Assembly (NCBI GenBank): GCA_039545335.1
Contig: BCIN01000008.1
Span: 321,528 to 385,527 of the forward strand
Source of the DNA: Kondoa subrosea
Lineage: Eukaryota
Length of the DNA: 64,000 nt
Direction of reading: 5' to 3'
Shown: positions 1,006 to 52,669 of the stretch, one piece after another
Layout: each line of letters begins with the position of its first letter
Position numbering within the stretch: position 1 is the first letter of the stretch
Translations under genes and position numbers: made by a program
Notes under the pieces: model-generated
Databases searched by the model: none
What the model saw: the letters and a program-made list of their open reading frames with translations, nothing else
What the model was told of the DNA's origin: nothing

Positions 1006-3733
1006 TGTGGCCGAGTCTCTGGCTCGAATGCTGTCGAACCGGAATCGAGATAGAGCAACAACTCCAGAGTATCGATAGAAGCAGAAAGGGCGCTATCATA
1101 CGTAGGATAGCCAGCGAATGAGAACCCACAAGGGGCAAAAGCTGCGGGCAAGAGTAATTGCTTGAAATTTCGGCTCATTCAGTATGTATTGGCTGGATAT
1201 AAAGCAGTATCGCATGCTGTGTAGCTTCGGAAAGTTGAACAGCGAGCGGCCGAGGCTGACCTCATGGTTTCAGGAAGACATTCAACGCTTAATTTGCTAG
1301 CACCATGATCTCGAGTTGCTGTGGCTGATCTGTGCTTGCGTGAAGGTATCTCATTCAGTCTATCATATGCTCTGTCTTTCTCTTGTCGAAGATCATTCGA
1401 TCTCACTCTTCTAGAATCTTTGGCACAACGCGCTTCAATTGTCTATCCGTTGCTTTGAGCGGCAGTCTTTGTTGTCTTTGCACTAGGCCAATCCATGTCT
1501 AAATTAGAAGTATCGTCTTGCGCCCCAAAATATTCGCCTGTTCTCTGAATTTGGAGTCTGGACCAGCTTGCTCGAGCATCGATCAAGCCAATATGCTGCG
1601 GTCATTGATGGTGTGTCCGTAGAGGAGAGAATGAGCGCATGGAAAGGCCCTGCTTTTGTCCGGCATATTTCTTACCCTTTGTTGCAACTTGCATGTCTGG
1701 TCGATCGAAAATGGTTAGTTGCATTCTGCTCAATTGCAAGTCTGGCTTGACATGGCTCTCCTCTTCATCCGCTCTGGTGAGCTGCATACTATGAGGCGAC
1801 AAGTGGATTCTGCTCAATGTTTAGGAACAACAGCCAGCCTGTTTGCTGAAAAAAATGGCATACCTTTATCTGCACCTGCACTCAGTCAATCGAATTGCCT
1901 CAACAGCACTTTCAATGTCTTATCTTCTGCGGTGCTTCCGTTTTGGGCAGCTTTAGTGCTGTACTTGACTACTTTGCGTCATGACCATTGGGTCAAACCA
2001 TGCCATTTGACCTGACGACAAGTTAATACAGTTTTGCGCTCACGTAGAGACTCTGCTCATTCAAGACTTCATTGCATCTTCATGAACCTTGTTCTTGGTC
2101 TGACCAAGGGAGTCTTGTTCTTCGATACAATGGAAGGATTGCTGCCCCAGAGCAGATCATTTGCAGAACCCTCTGTCTGCCTGCTTTTGCATCAGTAGGG
2201 GCCAAGGGGAACTGCACACCACTCTCCTATGTTCGCCTTGCATACTCTCATCGCTTCTGGCCCCAGGCCTTCAGCTTTCCTGTCCATGCCTAGATTTGGA
2301 GCTGTTACATGGCGGGTGAGTGATTGCTTCCAGACAACCGCGAATGCCAACACCTGCTTGCGCAGCACCTTCTAAGGGTGAAATATCATTTCGACCTTGC
2401 TCAAATCATCAAACAGCCTAGTTTGTAGCGGATCTTAAGTGTTTTCAGTGCAGTTACGAGATCATACAATCGGAAAAGGCTCCTCCGAGCGATTTCCTCC
2501 TTTCGACGATCTGCTCGTTTTGAGCTCATTATGTCGCAAGAGAGTCGAAGCGATCGATATTTCATGTCCAGCCTCCGTCTGCAATTGACCAGCTGGCCAT
2601 GACTCGTGTCATTGGAAGTAATGAATCTCCGCTAAAGGCCCCTTCGAGCTTGACTCTATCTTCAACATTGAAAGTTGGCTGGTCAACGTGTATCAGTAAA
2701 GGAAATTCGAATCGAGCTCATGTTTGGTGTTCAAACGTTTTCTCTGTTATCTCCTGAACCCAGATCAGGCTCTTTTGCTTCGTCGAATATGCTGTTGAAC
2801 TGTCCTTTGACCAGTTGATTGCTCCTTGAAATTGCCAACTCGAATGATAGTCCAATGCCCGACGTCTGTTCATTGGCGTGAACTTGAACTTTTCTATGTT
2901 TTTGTCGCATTTGACTAGATCTTCCGATCGTCTCAGACATATGTCAAGACTCTCGTCTGGCAATGCTGTCATTCGTTCGGTATCTTCCTGCTCTTAACAA
3001 TGGCTGTGCGTCTTATATCATCTCTGGGCTATCTGTCACCTGGCCGTCTTATACCTGTCAGTTTTAGCATTACGCAATAGGTAGTTTCATCTACATACAC
3101 GTTTATTGTTGCTGAATGTATCTCAACTCTTTTGACAGAACCGGTTGATCGATCTGTATAATTCACTCGGCCCGGCACCAGTTCTTCTCCTTGTGATGTG
3201 ATCTCTCTCGTTCCAGTCCGATTATTTTCGTCTGAAAATGTATCTGCGTCTGATCTGCCTCAACATTTCTATGCTTCTCAAGTTCTGCCGGCTCAGTAAC
3301 ACTACCATCTTCCAATTACGTCTGAGATCTACTAGGCTTAGTATCATACGATTCTACCACTGTTTCTGATTTATCGTCTATTATGCACACGTTCTGCTGG
3401 CTAACAAGAAACCGCTTCCCTGCCGTACAACCAGTGGACAGCTCTAGTCTACATCTTGCTTGTAATTTCCCTCTGCCCTCTGCCATAGTGCAATGCTGTC
3501 TCGTCGGTGTTTCTCTTTACTTTACTTTCAGACAAACCGACCCAACCCATTTTATTGTTGAGAGTGGTAATCTACGTAGGCTTTACTCTACTAAAAAAAA
3601 ACGTCGCGCTGCATGGGGTAGCCTCTGAGCTGCGCCCAAGCGCCAGTACTTGCTTTGCTCTCGCGCAAAGTGCCCTCCAAAGGTGAGAGGAATTTGTAAG
3701 TTATAGAAAATAGAATTTTCTTCTCCTTCCTTC

Positions 3734-27756: not shown

Positions 27757-30386
27757 ATGCGTCCTGATCGAATGCTTGGCCAAACAATGTCAAGGTCTCA
27801 ATTGGATGAATTCATCGCCGACAAACGGCGCTCTTCCAAAATCGACGCTCTTGAACGGAAACTTAGTCAGTCTGTAGCATGACTTTGGCTCGGAAGTTTA
27901 TACTTCTTCGCCAATCGAAGCATATTCGTACAAAACGCAAGGGGTCAGCTGCTATAGCAAAAAGGATTACAATCAAGCGCTGGATCTCTACCACAAGGCA
28001 TTCTGTACGCTTCTAGATCTGCCACAAGCGATACCTTCCGGCTTTGAGCAAGTCTGGGAAAGATACTCCAACTTGGACTGGAGGGTTTTGGTAGACCTAA
28101 TGGCGATCTGCAACAATATTGCGTTGATCCATGAGAAGCGGAAGGAGATTGAATCGGCTCTGCAATGGCTGTACGAGGTTGCTGTTATGCACGAAGGCAA
28201 CGCATACAAAAGTGCGACCGAAACTTCACATGGCTGGGCGGAGGCACAAATAGGAGTCAGTTGTCGGACACAATCAAGCTCATACGACAGCTTATGAAAT
28301 TAACAGGTAGTTGAAATACCGATATCGCGGTGTAAGAACCATCTTAGAAAATCTAAGATGTTTTTGGAGCTTGGCAGTACGGCTATTCTTGCCAGGCTAT
28401 GTACAACATCGTTTGACTATATTCCAGATACTGCACAAGCATCGAAAGAGCTCAGAGTCGCCTTGGGCTGCACTCATACTAGTCCAGATCTGCAGAATTT
28501 TCCAGAGATTCAAAAGCTTACATCGGCAGGACAAGCTTCACTCAGATCTATAGGAGCTATCAAGCATCCTGATATTGGTCAAGCAGATACAAGCTTGCAT
28601 GAGAATATCGTTCCGACGTACCATGTTCGCGGAAGCTGGACCAGAATAAGACCGACAGATACACCCGAAGCTCGATTTGGTGCTTCAGCTTTCGTATACA
28701 AATCAAGGCTTTACTATCAAGGTGGTGAGACCACTAGTAAGGACATGCAGACCGTTAGACTCACCGTAGGTTCGATGTCCGGCTTTCTACCCATGTAGCA
28801 GAAGCTGAATCGTCATTCTTAGAGTTTTTATTACCTTGATTTGCATAACAAAGAATCGTGGGTCAAATTGCCAGATACGCCTTATCACCTTCTATCTTTA
28901 CCTCACTCTTTATCTGGCGGTTCGTATCAGCTTGGCGTACATAAAGGCAAAGCATACCTGTTCATTGGAGCTTTGGATCTGCTACAATTCGATCTCGAAC
29001 AAGAAAGATGGTCAGTTGTTCAATCCACTTCAGCATTCACTTGGCCATATAAGTCCTGCCTACGAAAAGCGTCGACTGCTGTACACAAAGGCATCATGTA
29101 CGTCTGCAACGGAGCAACGGACGAGTATCATATCGGCAATACTCTGCTCTTGGCTTTGAATTTGGAAACAATGAAGTGGACACATTTGGCTGGTACACCT
29201 CAACCTTTGGCAAAGATGGGGAAACAGCCGCCGATGCGAGTAGAAGGGAAGTGCTGGATAGATCCGGTGGAAGAAGCTCTGTATCTTCTTTTCTGCGCTG
29301 TTCGTCGACAGTCTTGCATTTATTTTGAGAGTCTCATGCTATCGACACAGGCAAATCGAATATCTGACAACAACTTCCCAGTATGAGATTATCTCGAATC
29401 CTCCGAGCCAATACTGATAGGCTTGGTGATTTAGTCGCCTGTTGATAGCTTGTGTAACGGGACATTCGAAAAGGCTCCTGGCAGCAAGTTTCTCTCTGGA
29501 ACAATCAGCCTGCGAATCGGACTGAATTTGCTTTATGGTTCGCTATTGTGCTTCTACCACGCCTCAGATAACGGATAGTGCTACAGTACCAACACGAAAC
29601 TTGGCCTTACCGTCATTGGCTCTGGCTATAATTGTGCTTTAGTGTCGGGTGTCGCAGGCATGCCAGGTCGTTACTCTTACTCTTATTTGGGTGATTTCTT
29701 CACTCGTGATCAAGGGACTGGTTGCTGGAGACAAATCATTTCTAGAGGATTCCCTGTGTATAGAGGTGATATTCCGTCTGAATGGCTCTGGAAAGAAGCT
29801 AATAGCAGGAGTACAGCTGATGCTTCTTTGGTCTGCGATCCTAATACTGGTAATATGTACTTCCTGGGCGGATATACCAATGCAGAGTGAGTACAAGCTG
29901 CAGCCTCCAATTCCCTGTCTTATGAGCTTTTGAAAGATACATGCACGCAGTTCAAAGTGTGCTCTGCAGGTGTAAGTGACCTTATCTTTCGCCTACAGTA
30001 ACAAGACCATGGATGCCTACAACAAAGTCTACGGCGATATCTGGCAATTATATCTTGATGTCCCCGGTGGTGGCTTGTCCGTTCTCTGTTACTTTCTCTT
30101 CCGTCTACCTCGCTGATATCTTTCATAGCGAAAACGTCAATCTAGAAGAAGAAGCTCGGCTGAGCAAATTTGGTCTCAGTTTCAGATGCTTCAATTGCGC
30201 GTCTTTGAGCGAGAAGCACAAGCAATGTGCCGGAACGTGCGGAGGCAAGATCTTCTTCTGCTCTCGCGATTGTCAGACAGAGAGCTGGAAAGAGCATCAA
30301 AAGCTTCAGTATGTCCTTTCCATCCAGTTCACTTCTGAACTGAACCTCTGTGTTTTCTCAGCGGATGTAAGAAGAAGAAAAGGTAG
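27757..30386 (+). CDS. Helical/TPR-like + Kelch repeats + C-terminal MYND zinc finger protein; start uncertain
   Basis: PEARFGASAFVYKSRLYYQGG and MYFLGGY kelch motifs; CFNC..CAGTC..FCSRDCQTESWKEH..HGC MYND finger. Confidence 0.8.
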
Positions 30387-30516
30387 CATAGCTCTTCTAT
30401 AGCATTACTAGTGCCCCTTTACCCGTTCTTGTGACCCAATTCCGACAACCCAAAAGTGGCGAGTCCGACACATATAAAAGCCAGTCTCTTTATAGTCATT
30501 GCTATTCTGCAAAGGA

Positions 30517-40527: not shown

Positions 40528-42450
40528 ATGTCTCAGCAACAGGGAGACCAAGCTATTAGGCAACTCGCTTCCAATTTGTTCAAGGTACCACCCCAAGCTC
40601 GCGTGGTATCTGTCGTCCCTTTGAGTAGCCTAGCTTCGTCCGTTGTATCAGAACAAGAAATTTCAACACTTGCTCACTCACAGAACAGCGCAATGAAAGC
40701 CGAAATCAGAGGAGGCACCTTGCGGTCATTGGATCCTCGTCAAATTGCGTTGATACTGCTCCTCATGCCCTTCATTTGGTCACCGTATCTATCTTCCCCT
40801 CAGACATTACATACAAGTACAGGAAGACTGCTACACCTATTCCGAATGGATTGAAAGATTGCGTGGGCGGTTGAAGATCATATGCCATGATCGAAAATTG
40901 TGTTTACGCGAAGGTGCAGCTGTAGTTATGCTGCTTCGACGAATTCGACACTTGCTTCTTGTCGCGCACGACGACAAACATCCGGACAGACGTGAATTGA
41001 AATATGTTGACTGGGAAGAACCTCATGAATTGGCATTGGAATTACACAAGATCGCCCGTTTCCTCACATTTGATCCGCTGAGTATCTCGTGCATCCTACA
41101 AGCGTCAAAAGGAGAATTGCAAACTTTCCTCCTTGATGAGGAATGGCCAATTTCGAGAATGCGTCGGGAGTATGCTCAAGTAGAAGAACAGCATCGAGTT
41201 GCTCCTGTGGGTTTTGATTCTCTCTGTGCTGTCCGCAACGTCTCACCAATTGAGCTTGAAGACAATTGAATCTCTACACTATTTGACCGAGGACGAAATA
41301 ACAAGCCAAGGCAATACCAGTTTAGAAGCCTACATCCTCGCTTTCTTCTCTTGCAACGTGCTCGTCAGTATAGCTATGAATTTACAAAAGAGTGAAAGAA
41401 GTTTCCCTGCGCGGCTTGTTGAACGAGCAGTGTGTCCTTCTTCTTCCTTTCCTCTGATCCTATGTATCGAAGCTTAGGTGGTGATGCTACAACTTCAGCA
41501 ATAGGCCAGATATATAGTCATCCTGCAAAAATGAAAGAATACTTAGAAGCTGGAGTTTAGCATCAGCTTTTGGTGACTTTGTGAGCTTTCATTCGGCACA
41601 TCTTCATTCAATATAGCTTCATGCATCTTATATTGACAGGCCGAAGGTCACGCTGGCCAAGCGATTGGCAATACAGTAAAGGAATTGTCAAGCTTTGGTT
41701 TCATCAAGAAGTACTCTGCGCAAGATCTACATTATCTTTTCAACGAAATGTATAAGAAATGGGAAACGGATACTGGTGAAGTTATAGAGGTGAGTCATTC
41801 TCCCTCTTTAGCGTACTATATGAAGACGACTGACAAGCCTTTATGTGTGGAAGAAACACCTCAACCTGTTTGCTAGAGTCTTCCTCAACATTTACTCACA
41901 TCACGGTCTAACACCTTTCGCTTCTCAAGTCGCTTATATCCGTAACAATACCTTCTTTCCCTACCTTCAAAGCAAACTTGTCAAATCTGAAAGGGGAGGG
42001 AAAGAGAAGAGCGTTTACTCTACTTCTACTGCAGCTTGGGAGTCCCTTCTACAAGCACAGTCCAATTTAGCAGCAAGCAGGAAAGCACGACTAGTTTTCC
42101 CTACTCTTGCTCCTAGAGATCAATTGGAATGCCTAGAGTTTTACGTTTGCTGCTGTAGAAAAGAATGTCCTACTGTTGGACCTTGGCTGCGGAAATGTGA
42201 AGATTGGCTGAAACCAAATTCTGTTGGACCAACGAAAGAAGACAAGAAGGAAATGGCCAAACTAGTGGAGAGTATGAAGACTTGTCCTTGTCAAAGCAAG
42301 CTGTTCTGTTCTAGTACTTGTCAAGCGAAGAAATGGGATGAGCACAAAGAGCAGTGAAGGAGCTCAGCAAACAGCGGAAAGGGAAGGCTGAGCAACTCAA
42401 TGATCAGAAGTGACTGGGGAGACGAACAGAGACACGCGAGATTACATTGA
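40528..42450 (+). CDS. Hypothetical protein with C-terminal (split) MYND-type zinc finger
   Basis: Chain of spliced exons ending CCCRKEC...CPCQSKLFCSSTCQAKKWDEHK. Confidence 0.65.
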
Positions 42451-48597: not shown

Positions 48598-50221
48598 ATG
48601 AAGCGCAAGAAGAGCGAAGAGACAGGGAGCGAGACACAAAGTGAAGTCGAATACGTTTCTCCAAACAAGTCTGGGAAGAGGCGTGCCCTGCTTTCTACCA
48701 GTGCTGGTGACAAGGAAGTCAAGAAGCCACATCTGGACGATGAAGAGGACGATGCTACTATTGCTCGTAGACTACAAGAGGTGCGCTGAACTGTTCTTAT
48801 GTTATGAACACATTGACCTTCAAAACAGCAATGGGATGCAGAAGAGGCTGAGGCTCGAGCAGTAGCTGAAGAAAGAGATGCTACGTATGCTAGGAAGATG
48901 CTCGAGGCTGAAGAAGCAGAGGAGAGGAAAGCTCGAGCCAAACGAATGCGGCAGAAGAACTTACCTCAAGGTGTTCTGACCTTCTGTCTTATGTAGATAC
49001 TTCACTGATATGTATCATCAAGGCATCATCTATCAGTTCACCATGGATGCAAACGGGAAGACAATCAAAGGCGACGATGACCAGGTCGGCCTACTTCTAT
49101 TAAAGTAAGTATGGCCTTTTGCTTAGATTGATTTGCACCGACAGGACAACTTGCATCATTTGGAACTCGTCAAAAGCTACTTTGCAGCCGGCTCAGCTCG
49201 TGGGAACCTCAAGATCAAGCGAATCACAGTCTTCTTGAATCACAGTATAGAGGTAAGCCCTTCCCTCATGGCCGCTTTCATCCCAAAGGAATCTCATTCT
49301 TTCATCTAGGTAGACTTTGAGCGCGCCAAGCAGGCAGTGGCAGCTCAAGGACATCCTACGGAGGAGAAAGTGTAAGTACTGCGGTCTGATCTGGCGAATG
49401 CAAATCGCTGAACAGACAATGTAGGATGTTTCACGGAACCAAAGATGAGAATTTGCAGTCTATCATCGACAAGGGCTTCAAAGTTGGCGGCGTGTCAACG
49501 AAAGTCAGTCTTCCGATCAAGCTCGTTGCGTATTTTGGACTAATCACAAGTCATGATAGGTCAAGAACGGAGCCGCATTTGGTCTAGGTACAGCCTCGAG
49601 CCTTCTAATACTAGTACAATGGCTCAGGTTTAAGATAGGCGTTTACCTTGCAAAAGATCCCTCTCTTTCGGCAATGTACGCGATGGGAGGGAACAGGATG
49701 ATTGCTGTCACAGTAGTACCAGGTCGAATTTCTGCTGCAGGTCGGTCGTCTTGTTCAATACCATGTATGCTCATGCTGAATGACGCGTTATCGAAGCAAT
49801 CCCCGGAAAGCCTAAACCTGCTGGTCAGAACGAATACGACTCAGTAGCTGGCATGCTTGGTCCAACAGAGATTCTGGTAAGTTGCTCGACTCAGTACTTC
49901 ATCCAATGTCATACTCATGATCATGACTCTCGCTCTAGGTCGCACGCGACGCAGCTCTTTGTCTTCCAAAATACATTATCGAATTCGAAAGCAACCCTGC
50001 TGGCCACGGCTACGACGGAATGAATTTCATGCCAATACTTGGTCAAGGATCTAGTTCAAACGCTCAGCCTCAAGCTCTTCCTGCTATGCAACCTGACTCG
50101 TTTGCTCCGTTGGCATCTACTTCTTCATTTATACCTTTTAGCGGTCAAGGCAGTAGTAAGGTTCGTGTTGAATACCATTTGACTTCGAATCTAACCGAAT
50201 CGCGCAGAACTTGGTTCATGA
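48598..50221 (+). CDS. PARP-catalytic-domain ADP-ribosyltransferase with MIU-like motifs and C-terminal SHP box (10 predicted introns)
   Basis: Spliced: MFHGTKDENLQSIIDKGF..NGAAFGLGVYLAKDPSLSAMY..YDSV..TEILVARDAALCLPKYIIEF; N-terminal DDATIARRLQE and RDATYARKML; C-terminal FIPFSGQGSKLGS*. Confidence 0.85.
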
Positions 50222-50364: not shown

Positions 50365-52669
50365 TTACAGCAAGAAATCATCAAATTGACTGCTGCTGTT
50401 GTTGGTCGCAGGTGCGCTACTAAACAAATTCGCTTCTGCTTTCTGCTTAGCCAGATCAGCCATTGACTTGTTTCCTGCTGCATTTGAAGCAGAAGTAGTC
50501 GAGGTAGTAGTTGAGGAAAGCGCAGGCATGCTCCATAAATCTCCAAATGCATCGGCTGGTTTCTTATTGTTGGCTGTCGAACTTGGAGCGATAGGCGTGA
50601 AAGTGGAAGAAGCAGTAGCAGTGGAAGATGGTCGGACTGGTTGAGTCATGGGTGCTAGTGAAGGGGTAGCGGTATTGCCAAAGAGAGAAGTAGAAGGAGC
50701 AGGAGCTGAAGGTGGTCTTGAATTTGCTTGGACTGGTGCGGAACCCATCATATCGAAGAAATTAGGTTTTGCGGAGGTTGCTGGAGCAGCAGAAATAGGT
50801 GCAGAACTGAATGAAGGCATTGAAGGCGCTGCTGAGAAAGAGGGAGCGGCAGTGAAAGAAGCTAGACCTGATGAAGCATTTGATGCTGGAGGAGGTGCAA
50901 CGAAATCACCAAAGTCGTCATCATCTGTTTCAAGCTTAGCAAACATCCTCAAATGAATATTGGACATGCTCACCATCCAATGCTGGAACAGAAGCAGCGG
51001 CCGGCTTGACCACCGGCGCACTGAAAGCTGGAGTTGTAATAGCAGGTTCTTCATCATCGAAATCAAACAGATTCATTTCCTTGACAGGTTGCTTAGGTGG
51101 AGGAGTAGGAACAGAAGGAGATTTAGCAGTTGAGCGAGAAGAGGCAGACGTAGTTGTCCTGTTGGAACTACTTGCTGTTGGCCTTTCTTCCCACTCTCCT
51201 GCATCGTATTCATCTACATCTGGATCTTGACGTCTGCTGGATGATTCCCTGTACGATGGACCAGAGGAAGATCCTTCATCGTTATTGCCTGGATAACCTG
51301 TATACACACAGCCCGATTGGTCGAGATTTCGAAACCTTAAGTTGATTACACCTACCTAGTGAGTCACTTCCAAATCCACCATATTTGCTACCAGTACCAG
51401 TCCGGAAAGAAACTTCTTCGTTACTAATTCCACCGTACTTGTTCTTATTCGCTCGAGCCCGTTTGCGTTCTTGTCTGATCCTGTCAGAATCGGCCAGCAA
51501 TTCCGATAATTCTTTTGCTCTGTTGCGGACTGTAGGGACATCCAGTTTTACTTAGATATGATCTATCTATGAAAGCAAAGTTGACCTACCGTTAAGACCT
51601 TGATCTTTACCCTTTTCATCTACGTAATGGAAATTGCGCAAGATCTTAATCATGGAAACATGCGTTCGAGCATCATCAATGACTCGTTCTGAGCCATGCT
51701 TGACTAAGTATTCGAGAAGTTGAAGAGCCTGTCAAAATATTTCGAATAATAAACAACAGGCTGCTGAAGTTTCGAAAAGCATCTGACCTTGTAGATTTGT
51801 CTCCATTCGCTTGCTTCCTTTTCAGTGAATCGTTTATCTACGTTAAACATAAGTACAGCGAGCAGAGAAGTCAAACGATGTCCCCACAGATAGTAGGCAT
51901 GATTTCGTTGAAGAGTTGGCTGTGAGAAAAGGCAGATGGACCATTAGCTGACGCTGAGGAATCATCTACTAGCTCTCACAAATTATGTGTTCTAGGAACA
52001 GCAGCCTTAGTGAAGGTGCAGGTAATCAAGACAGTACTAACCCTTGAGCGATTTCTTGCATCAACGTTGAACTAGCACCCCTGTGCATTAAGATGTTTCT
52101 CTTTCAGTGAATCGATCTTTTGGATTGATGGCTTGACGCACCATGCATCATCATTTGTCGCCTCTCGAACTTTCGATTCCTATTTGACGAATCTGAGGGT
52201 AAGAAATCTGGCAGAAGTAGTCTAACTTACCATCGGCGTATACTGCAGCAGTTGCATTAATTAATGAAGGATCACTGGACGGCATGGATGAACTCACGTT
52301 CATGATCACATTTTTGGCCTGAGCGCGCTTGCCTCAGCTCTCATCAGGACGGATAGTGAAGCACGCACCTGATTGTAGTAGCTCTTGATGTCATAGACAG
52401 ATACTATAACTGAGAATCAGCCTAGTTCAGAGGCCAACGAAAGAGCGCGCTGACCTTCCGATAACTGAATGCAATAACACGTTTTAGGACAGAGCTCTCT
52501 CGCACTGACAGGATCTCACCTGTTTGCCTGTGCGCGCAGTCCGAGCCAGTAAGCTACCAACGAGCAGCTGAACATCGGCTTCGACGCACCCAACGACTCG
52601 AGTAACTAGAGTTCCGCATGATCAGCCTCACACTTCGCGCTTCTCTATTGCGAGAAGACTCACATCCAT
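50365..52669 (-). CDS. ENT3: Epsin-related ENTH protein (Ent3/epsinR type)
   Basis: SVYDIKSYYNQAKN..ESKVREATNDDAWGASS..EWRQIYKALQLLEYLVKHGSE; DFGDF gamma-ear and LFDFD clathrin-type motifs. Confidence 0.9.

Follow-up and report, generated by a model that had tools for sequence, protein, structure and literature searches.

The 64,000-nucleotide stretch of Kondoa subrosea DNA analyzed here (assembly GCA_039545335.1, contig BCIN01000008.1, positions 321,528 to 385,527 of the forward strand; hereafter, the window) carries at 48598-50221 (+) a gene whose predicted 358-residue product joins a PARP catalytic core to a C-terminal SHP box, a short motif of the kind that docks UFD1 and other cofactors on Cdc48/p97. 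On a reading that we hold tentatively, and rate a little short of an even chance, the product is a small PARP-family ADP-ribosyltransferase (ART) with a basic disordered N terminus, a helix bearing two DATxAR units, a bare catalytic core, and a tail that would dock on Cdc48. The PARP score, the SHP pattern, and the repeat on the helix, which resembles the motif interacting with ubiquitin (MIU), all exceed chance when compared with shuffled sequences. We have not found this combination of PARP core, ubiquitin-reader-like helix, and Cdc48-docking tail described.

The PARP catalytic core and its gene

An initial annotation of this DNA had proposed a PARP-fold catalytic domain, and profile comparisons agree. 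A prokaryote genome collection was scanned for a short PARP signature peptide, yielding 40 loci, and a profile was built from the 16 of these whose open reading frames (ORFs) have HG[ST] no more than 40 residues upstream of the signature and a Glu-aromatic-aliphatic-aliphatic sequence downstream; two of the 16 members were checked with Pfam, and both have WGR, PARP_reg, and PARP domains. We found that the full-length bacterial profile scores the spliced protein at 29.7 bits, aligning residues 139-237, and that a profile restricted to the catalytic domain scores it at 32.8 bits. The best score among 1000 shuffles of the spliced protein is 10.2 bits, and the best among 2164 unspliced ORF pieces of the window is 11.5 bits, which belongs to the exon 6 ORF. 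Comparison with the bacterial profile by hhalign gives a probability of 96.15% (E 2.8e-9, 28% identity over 155 columns) across exons 4-10, and His189, Gly190, Tyr224, Ser232, and Tyr235 fall on conserved NAD-pocket columns of the profile (HG, GIYFA, and SKSAQY). In a glocal hmmalign run against the full-length bacterial profile, the C-terminal strands were left unplaced. Pfam itself bears out the PARP assignment in part: given single exons only, it matched one of seven exon pieces, exon 6, to PF00644 (PARP; E 0.0065, profile positions 52-71), but at 16.4 bits, below the 26.7-bit gathering cut-off. An atlas feature search with exons 7-8 placed PARP clusters at the top (0.88), which we treat as a lead only. 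As judged from these comparisons, the protein belongs to the PARP catalytic superfamily (PF00644). We take the motifs around His189 and Tyr224 to be more like those of clade 6 than of clade 1, although this is an impression.

By the same comparisons, the core (residues ~110-299) is a bare PARP domain without the WGR, BRCT, or regulatory domains, as had been proposed. Pfam found no WGR, BRCT, or PARP_reg in the single-exon queries, exons 1, 2, and 4 had no Pfam match of any kind, and residues 1-108 are predicted to be unstructured except for one helix, which leaves no space for such domains. Only 59 residues follow the core; exon 10 has no Pfam match, and there is no UBCc E2 domain. The protein accordingly has neither the PARP1-type nor the PARP-Ubc architecture.

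The third residue of the catalytic triad is more difficult to assign. The initial annotation placed a Glu there, within TEILV, and this is the best-scoring choice of both hhalign and HMMER, which put Glu280 on the catalytic Glu column. However, the placement needs a one-residue gap after the strand, its posterior is low, and the HMMER segment carrying Glu280 scores only 1.6 bits; a gapless register to the final strand puts Ile281, not Glu280, at the third triad position. Glu280 and Ile281 are thus both candidates, and the enzyme may accordingly catalyze either poly- or mono-ADP-ribosylation.

The gene has 11 exons and 10 GT..AG introns of 48-62 nt, and its spliced frame of 1077 nt (358 codons) runs from an ATG at 48598-48600 to a single terminal stop, TGA at 50219-50221, which is reached after splicing. 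Donor hexamers are diverse, with eight different ones among the 10 introns. All of the strings named in the initial annotation are present: MKRKK, KSGKRR, two acidic motifs (residues 49-67 across intron 1, and residues 75-90), FHGT, GVYLA, TEILV, and a C-terminal FIPFSGQGSKLGS followed by the stop. As predicted from one genomic sequence, the locus is an intact 11-exon fungal gene, with the following features:

48598-48780 (+): exon 1, residues 1-61; basic clusters K2-K5 and K27-R29; MIU-like core 1, D52-Q60, at 48751-48777
48781-48828 (+): intron 1, 48 nt, GTGCGC..CAG
48829-48970 (+): exon 2, residues 62-108; long charged helix; MIU-like motif 2 (residues 75-90) at 48868-48915
48971-49022 (+): intron 2
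49023-49084 (+): exon 3, residues 109-129; start of the catalytic region
49085-49144 (+): intron 3, donor GTCGGC at 49085; decoy GTAAGT inside it at 49105
49145-49252 (+): exon 4, residues 130-165; N-terminal helix and strand of the PARP core; the bacterial profile aligns from residue 138/139
49310-49371 (+): exon 5, residues 166-186; split codon at its end
49425-49503 (+): exon 6, residues 186-212; FHGT, with His189 at 49432-49434, and Gly190
49560-49587 (+): exon 7, residues 213-222; ends in G-x-G before the Tyr motif
49588-49638 (+): intron 7, 51 nt; in frame and stop-free, so that the unspliced reading stays open
49639-49740 (+): exon 8, residues 222-256; GVYLA, with Tyr224 at 49644-49646; Ser232 and Tyr235
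49797-49876 (+): exon 9, residues 256-282; YDSV; Glu280 at 49868-49870 and Ile281 at 49871-49873
49939-50155 (+): exon 10, residues 283-355; last core strands to about residue 299 (49989), then a Ser/Gln/Pro-rich linker
from 50128 (+): 3' part of exon 10, first nine SHP box residues plus one base
50156-50207 (+): intron 10, 52 nt; GTAAGG donor and CTAAC branch 12 nt before CAG
50208-50221 (+): exon 11, completing Lys355, then Leu356, Gly357, Ser358, and TGA

Intron 1 must be spliced out because it holds an in-frame TGA at 48787-48789, and the predicted splice junctions within the PARP core are supported by homology. If intron 7 were retained, the Gly-x-Gly and the catalytic Tyr would be separated by 17 additional residues; with the intron in place, the model scores 18.5 bits against the PARP profile instead of 32.8. 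For intron 3, an alternative that keeps the frame (donor 49105 with an AAG acceptor, ending at 49176) alters 7-11 residues before the core and scores 32.5 versus 32.8 bits, such that the two models (donors 49085 and 49105/49176) are indistinguishable by profile score. Pairing GTAAGT at 49105 with the CAG acceptor at 49144 was rejected, as it makes a 40-nt intron and a frameshift.

The 16 bacterial PARP records used for the profile (among L003-L040) are all labeled Armatimonadota or families of it, such as Capsulimonadaceae and Chthonomonadaceae. These proteins have 411-519 residues, an intact H-Y-E triad, and, in the two of the 16 checked with Pfam, a WGR-PARP_reg-PARP arrangement. As read from these labels and motifs, the set is a phylum-wide cluster of bacterial PARP1-like enzymes.

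The predicted C-terminal SHP box and the last intron

The spliced tail ends FIPFSGQGSKL-Gly-Ser-stop. Residues F346-L356, encoded by 50128-50155 joined to 50208-50212, fit the full 11-residue pattern F-x-x-F-x-G-x-G-x-x-L with its invariant Gly6 and Gly8, conditional on the splicing of intron 10. In PMC5042407 the UFD1 SHP box is given as the 11 residues FRAFSGSGNRL, in which Gly230 and Gly232 are strictly conserved and the contacts to the p97 N domain, at its Nc lobe, are made by Phe225, Phe228, Asn233, and Leu235; the UFD1 SHP peptide alone binds the p97 N domain weakly, with a dissociation constant of 221 uM. The UFD1 F1, F4, G6, G8, and L11 are all kept in FIPFSGQGSKL, and Ser replaces the contact residue Asn233. 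The same pattern, with both Phe, both Gly, and the Leu, describes the UFD1 box (BS1) and those of p47/Shp1, SPRTN/DVC1, Derlin-1, ASPL, and RanBP2, and the box of Derlin-1 is C-terminal, as it is here (PMC5042407). The host differs in being an ART, unlike any of these proteins.

In the window, whose six-frame translation comprises 127,996 residues, there is no match to the pattern F..F.G.G..L or to the shorter forms F.G.G..L[GD] and F.G.G..L; when the tail was shuffled 200,000 times with its composition kept, a fraction of 1.4e-4 of the shuffles showed the 11-residue pattern. Thirty-four residues before the box is a degenerate SHP-like copy, FMPILGQGSSS (F312-S322, 50026-50058), and the two share GGTCAAGG as their Gly-Gln-Gly codons; the degenerate copy suggests an internal duplication in the tail.

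Further support comes from a UFD1 homologue that was recovered when metagenomes were scanned with exon 10. The scan gave 287 pattern matches and returned two loci, neither of them orthologous to the PARP gene. One locus (L002) is a chance match to AMQPDSFAP, and the other (L001) was rejected as an ortholog because it is a UFD1 homologue: its 223-residue ORF, at 1696-2367 (+), is similar to human UFD1 chains over 159 aligned residues (E 0.002, 21 bits), and its end, GFIPFSGQGRRLGSKP, is aligned by HMMER on the human UFD1 SHP box. With tblastn, residues 310-358 of the spliced model align to the L001 C terminus across the splice junction and on through Lys/Arg-Leu-Gly-Ser, and the SHP box of the PARP protein is near-identical to that of the UFD1 homologue.

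We note that the L001 ORF stops five residues past its SHP box and so is without the NPL4-binding C-terminal part of UFD1. Its neighboring ORFs are intron-free and tightly packed, and the locus may derive from a giant virus or a compact eukaryote.

Seven alternative 3' ends were computed for the PARP gene, and only donor 50156 together with acceptor 50207 produces the box. With donor 50153 the spacing from Gly to Leu becomes shorter; with 50161 or 50167 the protein gains 72-74 Cys/Ile-rich residues and reaches into a convergent downstream ORF; and donor 50165, intron retention, and acceptor 50233 give unrelated ends, the retained intron 10 adding 38 residues of no recognizable kind. This agrees with the initial annotation, in which the box was said to depend on a 52-nt last intron; the intron is present at 50156-50207 with GTAAGG..CTAAC..CAG, it creates the C-terminal FIPFSGQGSKLGS, and the box so formed matches that of the UFD1 homologue nearly residue for residue. 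We consider it likely that intron 10 and the SHP box are both real. A Cdc48-docking motif is credible on this sequence evidence, and the protein may bind Cdc48 through it.

The N-terminal helix and its candidate ubiquitin-binding motifs

AlphaFold models of single exon pieces predict a largely disordered N terminus followed by a long helix. For the exon 1 piece alone, residues 1-51 have no secondary structure (predicted local distance difference test score [pLDDT] 64-77) and residues 52-60 are helical; the 47-residue exon 2 piece is one helix, from its residue 2 to its residue 44 (residues 63-105 of the protein), with a mean pLDDT of 91. In these models residues 52-105 would make up one helix of ~54 residues, intron 1 being its sole interruption at the DNA level. 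Along it lie two DAT-x-A-R-[RK]-[LM] units, centered on Ala56 and Ala82. There are two matches to DAT.AR in the six-frame translation of the window, both within the PARP gene, and two relaxed MIU-like matches are seen in 5e-5 of shuffles of residues 45-108.

The initial annotation interpreted these units as two MIUs. We compared them with features of MIUs taken from papers, namely the central Ala and the Leu-Gln, and with the full consensus. The central Ala is essential, in that an A179G/A450G double mutant of RNF168 has markedly reduced ubiquitin binding, and the Leu-Gln that follows it is highly conserved in canonical MIUs, as in ZUFSP (L240/Q241). The first motif (D52-Q60) reads I-A-R-R-L-Q, has acidic flanks, lies in the predicted helix, and fits the MIU core; across all six frames of the window, nothing else matches the strict pattern D..[LIV]A..LQ. 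The second reads Y-A-R-K-M-L, with Met-Leu instead of Leu-Gln, and departs from the core. What stands of the two-MIU proposal is therefore that both motifs are on the predicted helix, that they form a non-random repeat, and that the first has A-x-x-L-Q, but the second is without Leu-Gln. The literal consensus given there for MIUs, DxxxAxxLxxEE, matches neither motif (0 matches). Searches of the PDB by sequence gave no match for exon 1 and two unrelated ones for exon 2, with no MIU protein among them. The first motif may bind ubiquitin, and the sequence-based case for a ubiquitin reader is weaker than that for Cdc48 docking.

Proposed function, related systems, and alternatives

In the reading that we tentatively prefer, the enzyme, which may be nuclear, would be anchored by its SHP box to the Nc lobe of the N domain of Cdc48, in the manner of the boxes of UFD1, p47, SPRTN, and Derlin-1; the first helix motif may hold ubiquitin; and the ART core, if active, would act at the unfoldase on ubiquitin itself, on clients that carry it, or on partners of Cdc48. 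The logic would be that of a SPRTN/Wss1-like Cdc48 cofactor in which an ART replaces the protease. If this is true, ADP-ribosylation would be coupled to segregase-dependent extraction or degradation, and the gene would be a second, independent fungal case of a PARP core tied to the ubiquitin system; if the SHP box and the helix work, it would also provide a simple and genetically tractable handle on the cross-talk of ADP-ribosylation, ubiquitin, and Cdc48. We know of no ART that carries its own Cdc48-docking motif. A more ambitious version, which we regard as unlikely, is that the protein represents a third fungal PARP type and the first ART to act as a direct SHP-box cofactor of Cdc48/p97, held by its MIU-like helix on ubiquitin chains and writing ADP-ribose on ubiquitin or clients.

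In design the protein resembles SPRTN/Wss1, whose combination of a catalytic domain, an SHP box, and a ubiquitin- or SUMO-binding element it would share; the likeness is one of design and not of homology. SPRTN/Wss1 are metalloproteases, whereas the domain here is a PARP-fold ART and no PIP box, UBZ, or SIM was recognized. To our knowledge PARP10 is without an SHP box; it too has a PARP domain lacking WGR and regulatory domains, placed after helical ubiquitin-binding motifs, but it differs in having UIMs, an RRM, and a Gly-rich region and in being much larger, whereas the candidate motifs here are in the MIU (inverted) register. The fungal PARP-Ubc proteins (fPARP2, clade 6A) similarly tie a fungal PARP with a compact catalytic domain to the ubiquitin system; they differ in having ~1150 residues, RWD/FPE, and a C-terminal UBCc E2 domain, whereas here there is a 59-residue tail with a short motif. 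With the fungal and bacterial PARP1-type enzymes (WGR-PARP_reg-PARP) the protein shares a homologous core, as the profile and hhalign comparisons indicate (32.8 bits and 96%), but their WGR, BRCT, and PARP_reg domains are lacking here, and the N-terminal 108 residues have no Pfam match.

These relationships can be set against published work. SPRTN/DVC1 recruits p97 through its SHP box (PMC5042407), and the UIMs of PARP10 (clade 3A) bind mono- and polyubiquitin (PMC2964712). Citarelli et al. (PMC2964712) report that fungi carry only clade 1 and clade 6 PARPs, without clade 3; a 2026 preprint covering 534 fungal species lists only PARP1-type enzymes and PARP-Ubc, and a 2026 review names the same two fungal types, PARP1-like and a PARP6-like PARP-Ubc fusion. 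A divergent 358-residue enzyme would escape the 534-species survey, whose searches relied on reciprocal best BLAST and a length-ratio filter of 0.45. The known link between p97 and PARP is with PARP1 as a client, trapped PARP1 being extracted from chromatin by p97 (PMC8760077). A full-text literature search, judged by titles and the starts of abstracts, returned no description of a PARP or ADP-ribosyltransferase with an SHP box, and to that extent the architecture is undescribed, as the initial annotation held.

Homologues were sought in databases with single unspliced exon pieces, the longest of 26-72 residues. Exon 10 gave 31 candidates among longer proteins, none of them scoring, and no usable match in an atlas search. 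A protein search with exons 7-8 gave 152 candidates with none at E<=0.1, exon 6 with its flanks gave two candidates with none at E<=10, and no PARP was recovered when the PDB was searched by sequence with exon pieces. The single match of exons 7-8 in an exhaustive representative search, a 425-residue repeat protein, is spurious and has no similarity to the spliced model. Given such short queries, these empty searches do not argue against the presence of the family elsewhere.

Several observations weigh against the Cdc48-docking reading. No ortholog was obtained from the single-exon queries, which is weak evidence either way, since a 26-43-residue query is too short for significance; the Pfam match to the core is below the cut-off; and no second Cdc48-binding module (UBX, UBD, or VIM) is evident, whereas known cofactors usually add a second contact. 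By eye, none of the VIM, VBM, or PIP-box patterns was seen in the protein. Moreover, the SHP box is lost if the donor GTTCGT at 50161 is used or if intron 10 is retained, and the argument for the splice and the box is partly circular, since the motif being proposed is also what favors the chosen splice. The 3' end may thus be mis-modeled, such that the real protein is without an SHP box. Donor 50161 fits GTNNGT, the donors of this gene vary widely, and its splice sites are predicted from sequence. We nonetheless regard a mis-modeled end as improbable, as donor 50161 adds a 72-residue Cys/Ile-rich extension into the convergent ORF and retention adds unrecognizable sequence, whereas the donor of intron 50156-50207 begins with the same GTAAG as three others in the gene, the CTAAC branch of this intron is perfect and lies 12 nt before CAG, its length is typical, and no other splice continues the similarity to the UFD1 homologue through Lys/Arg-Leu-Gly-Ser. 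Even with the 3' end correctly modeled, the protein might be a stand-alone PARP-domain mono-ART in which the helix and the tail are mere linkers and the motif matches look-alikes. Disordered tails of low complexity readily give rise to short linear motifs; with this window one of very many read, a 1e-4 pattern is expected somewhere; the isolated SHP-p97 affinity is weak; and the single-exon searches retrieved no ortholog. A chance resemblance has, however, to account for a match at all 11 SHP positions and the Gly-Ser that follows, near-identical to the box of the UFD1 homologue; for a pattern that is found nowhere else in the window, with a degenerate copy at F312-S322 as if the tail had been built by duplication; and for two DATxAR units that form a non-random repeat. 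We think this explanation rather unlikely, although it deserves more weight than a mis-modeled end.

A distinct possibility, to which we give more credence than to either of these while still rating it below the Cdc48-docking reading, is that the SHP box is real and the helix is not a ubiquitin reader. It could be a mere charged spacer (a single alpha-helix or coiled coil), a regulatory helix that packs on the core, or a partial motif that we take to resemble the MIT-interacting MIM1. The helix is continuous over 54 residues, rich in Glu, Ala, Arg, and Lys, and directly precedes the catalytic core; the second motif is without Leu-Gln, the literal MIU consensus is absent, and PDB searches with exons 1 and 2 gave no MIU protein. 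Speaking for a reader are the first motif, whose Asp, hydrophobic residue, Ala, and Leu-Gln are spaced as in an MIU and have acidic flanks, and the fact that the two copies of the repeat unit agree over precisely the MIU-like positions. There remains the question of activity, and a catalytically inactive PARP-like pseudo-enzyme that binds only NAD or ADP-ribose would be compatible with the uncertain third triad residue, since with Ile281 the polymerizing Glu would be lacking, and with a core so divergent that single exon pieces match no PARP in the PDB. We regard this as very improbable: the nicotinamide pocket retains its His, Gly, Tyr, Ser, and Tyr, and H-Y-I/L enzymes are active mono-ARTs.

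The surroundings of the gene are those of an ordinary eukaryotic region, with genes split into short exons and a G+C content of 45.8% across the window. Among 126 ORF pieces of at least 90 residues, 78 were scanned and 17 of the 78 have Pfam matches, including emp24, NTR2, protein kinase, Rtr1, ABC transporter, zf-MYND, GT8, MFS, and NAD-glutamate dehydrogenase; no AAA ATPase, UBX, or ubiquitin domain is present among the 78. The convergent ORF downstream of the PARP gene, at 50368-51072 (-), is Ser/Ala/Pro-rich and has no Pfam match; its stop lies ~145 nt from that of the PARP gene, and the 3' untranslated regions of the two genes probably overlap. Two separate zf-MYND ORF pieces, at 29980-30399 and 41824-42354 (+), are in keeping, as are the dense short introns, with the mushroom-forming basidiomycetes, of which MYND expansions are typical.

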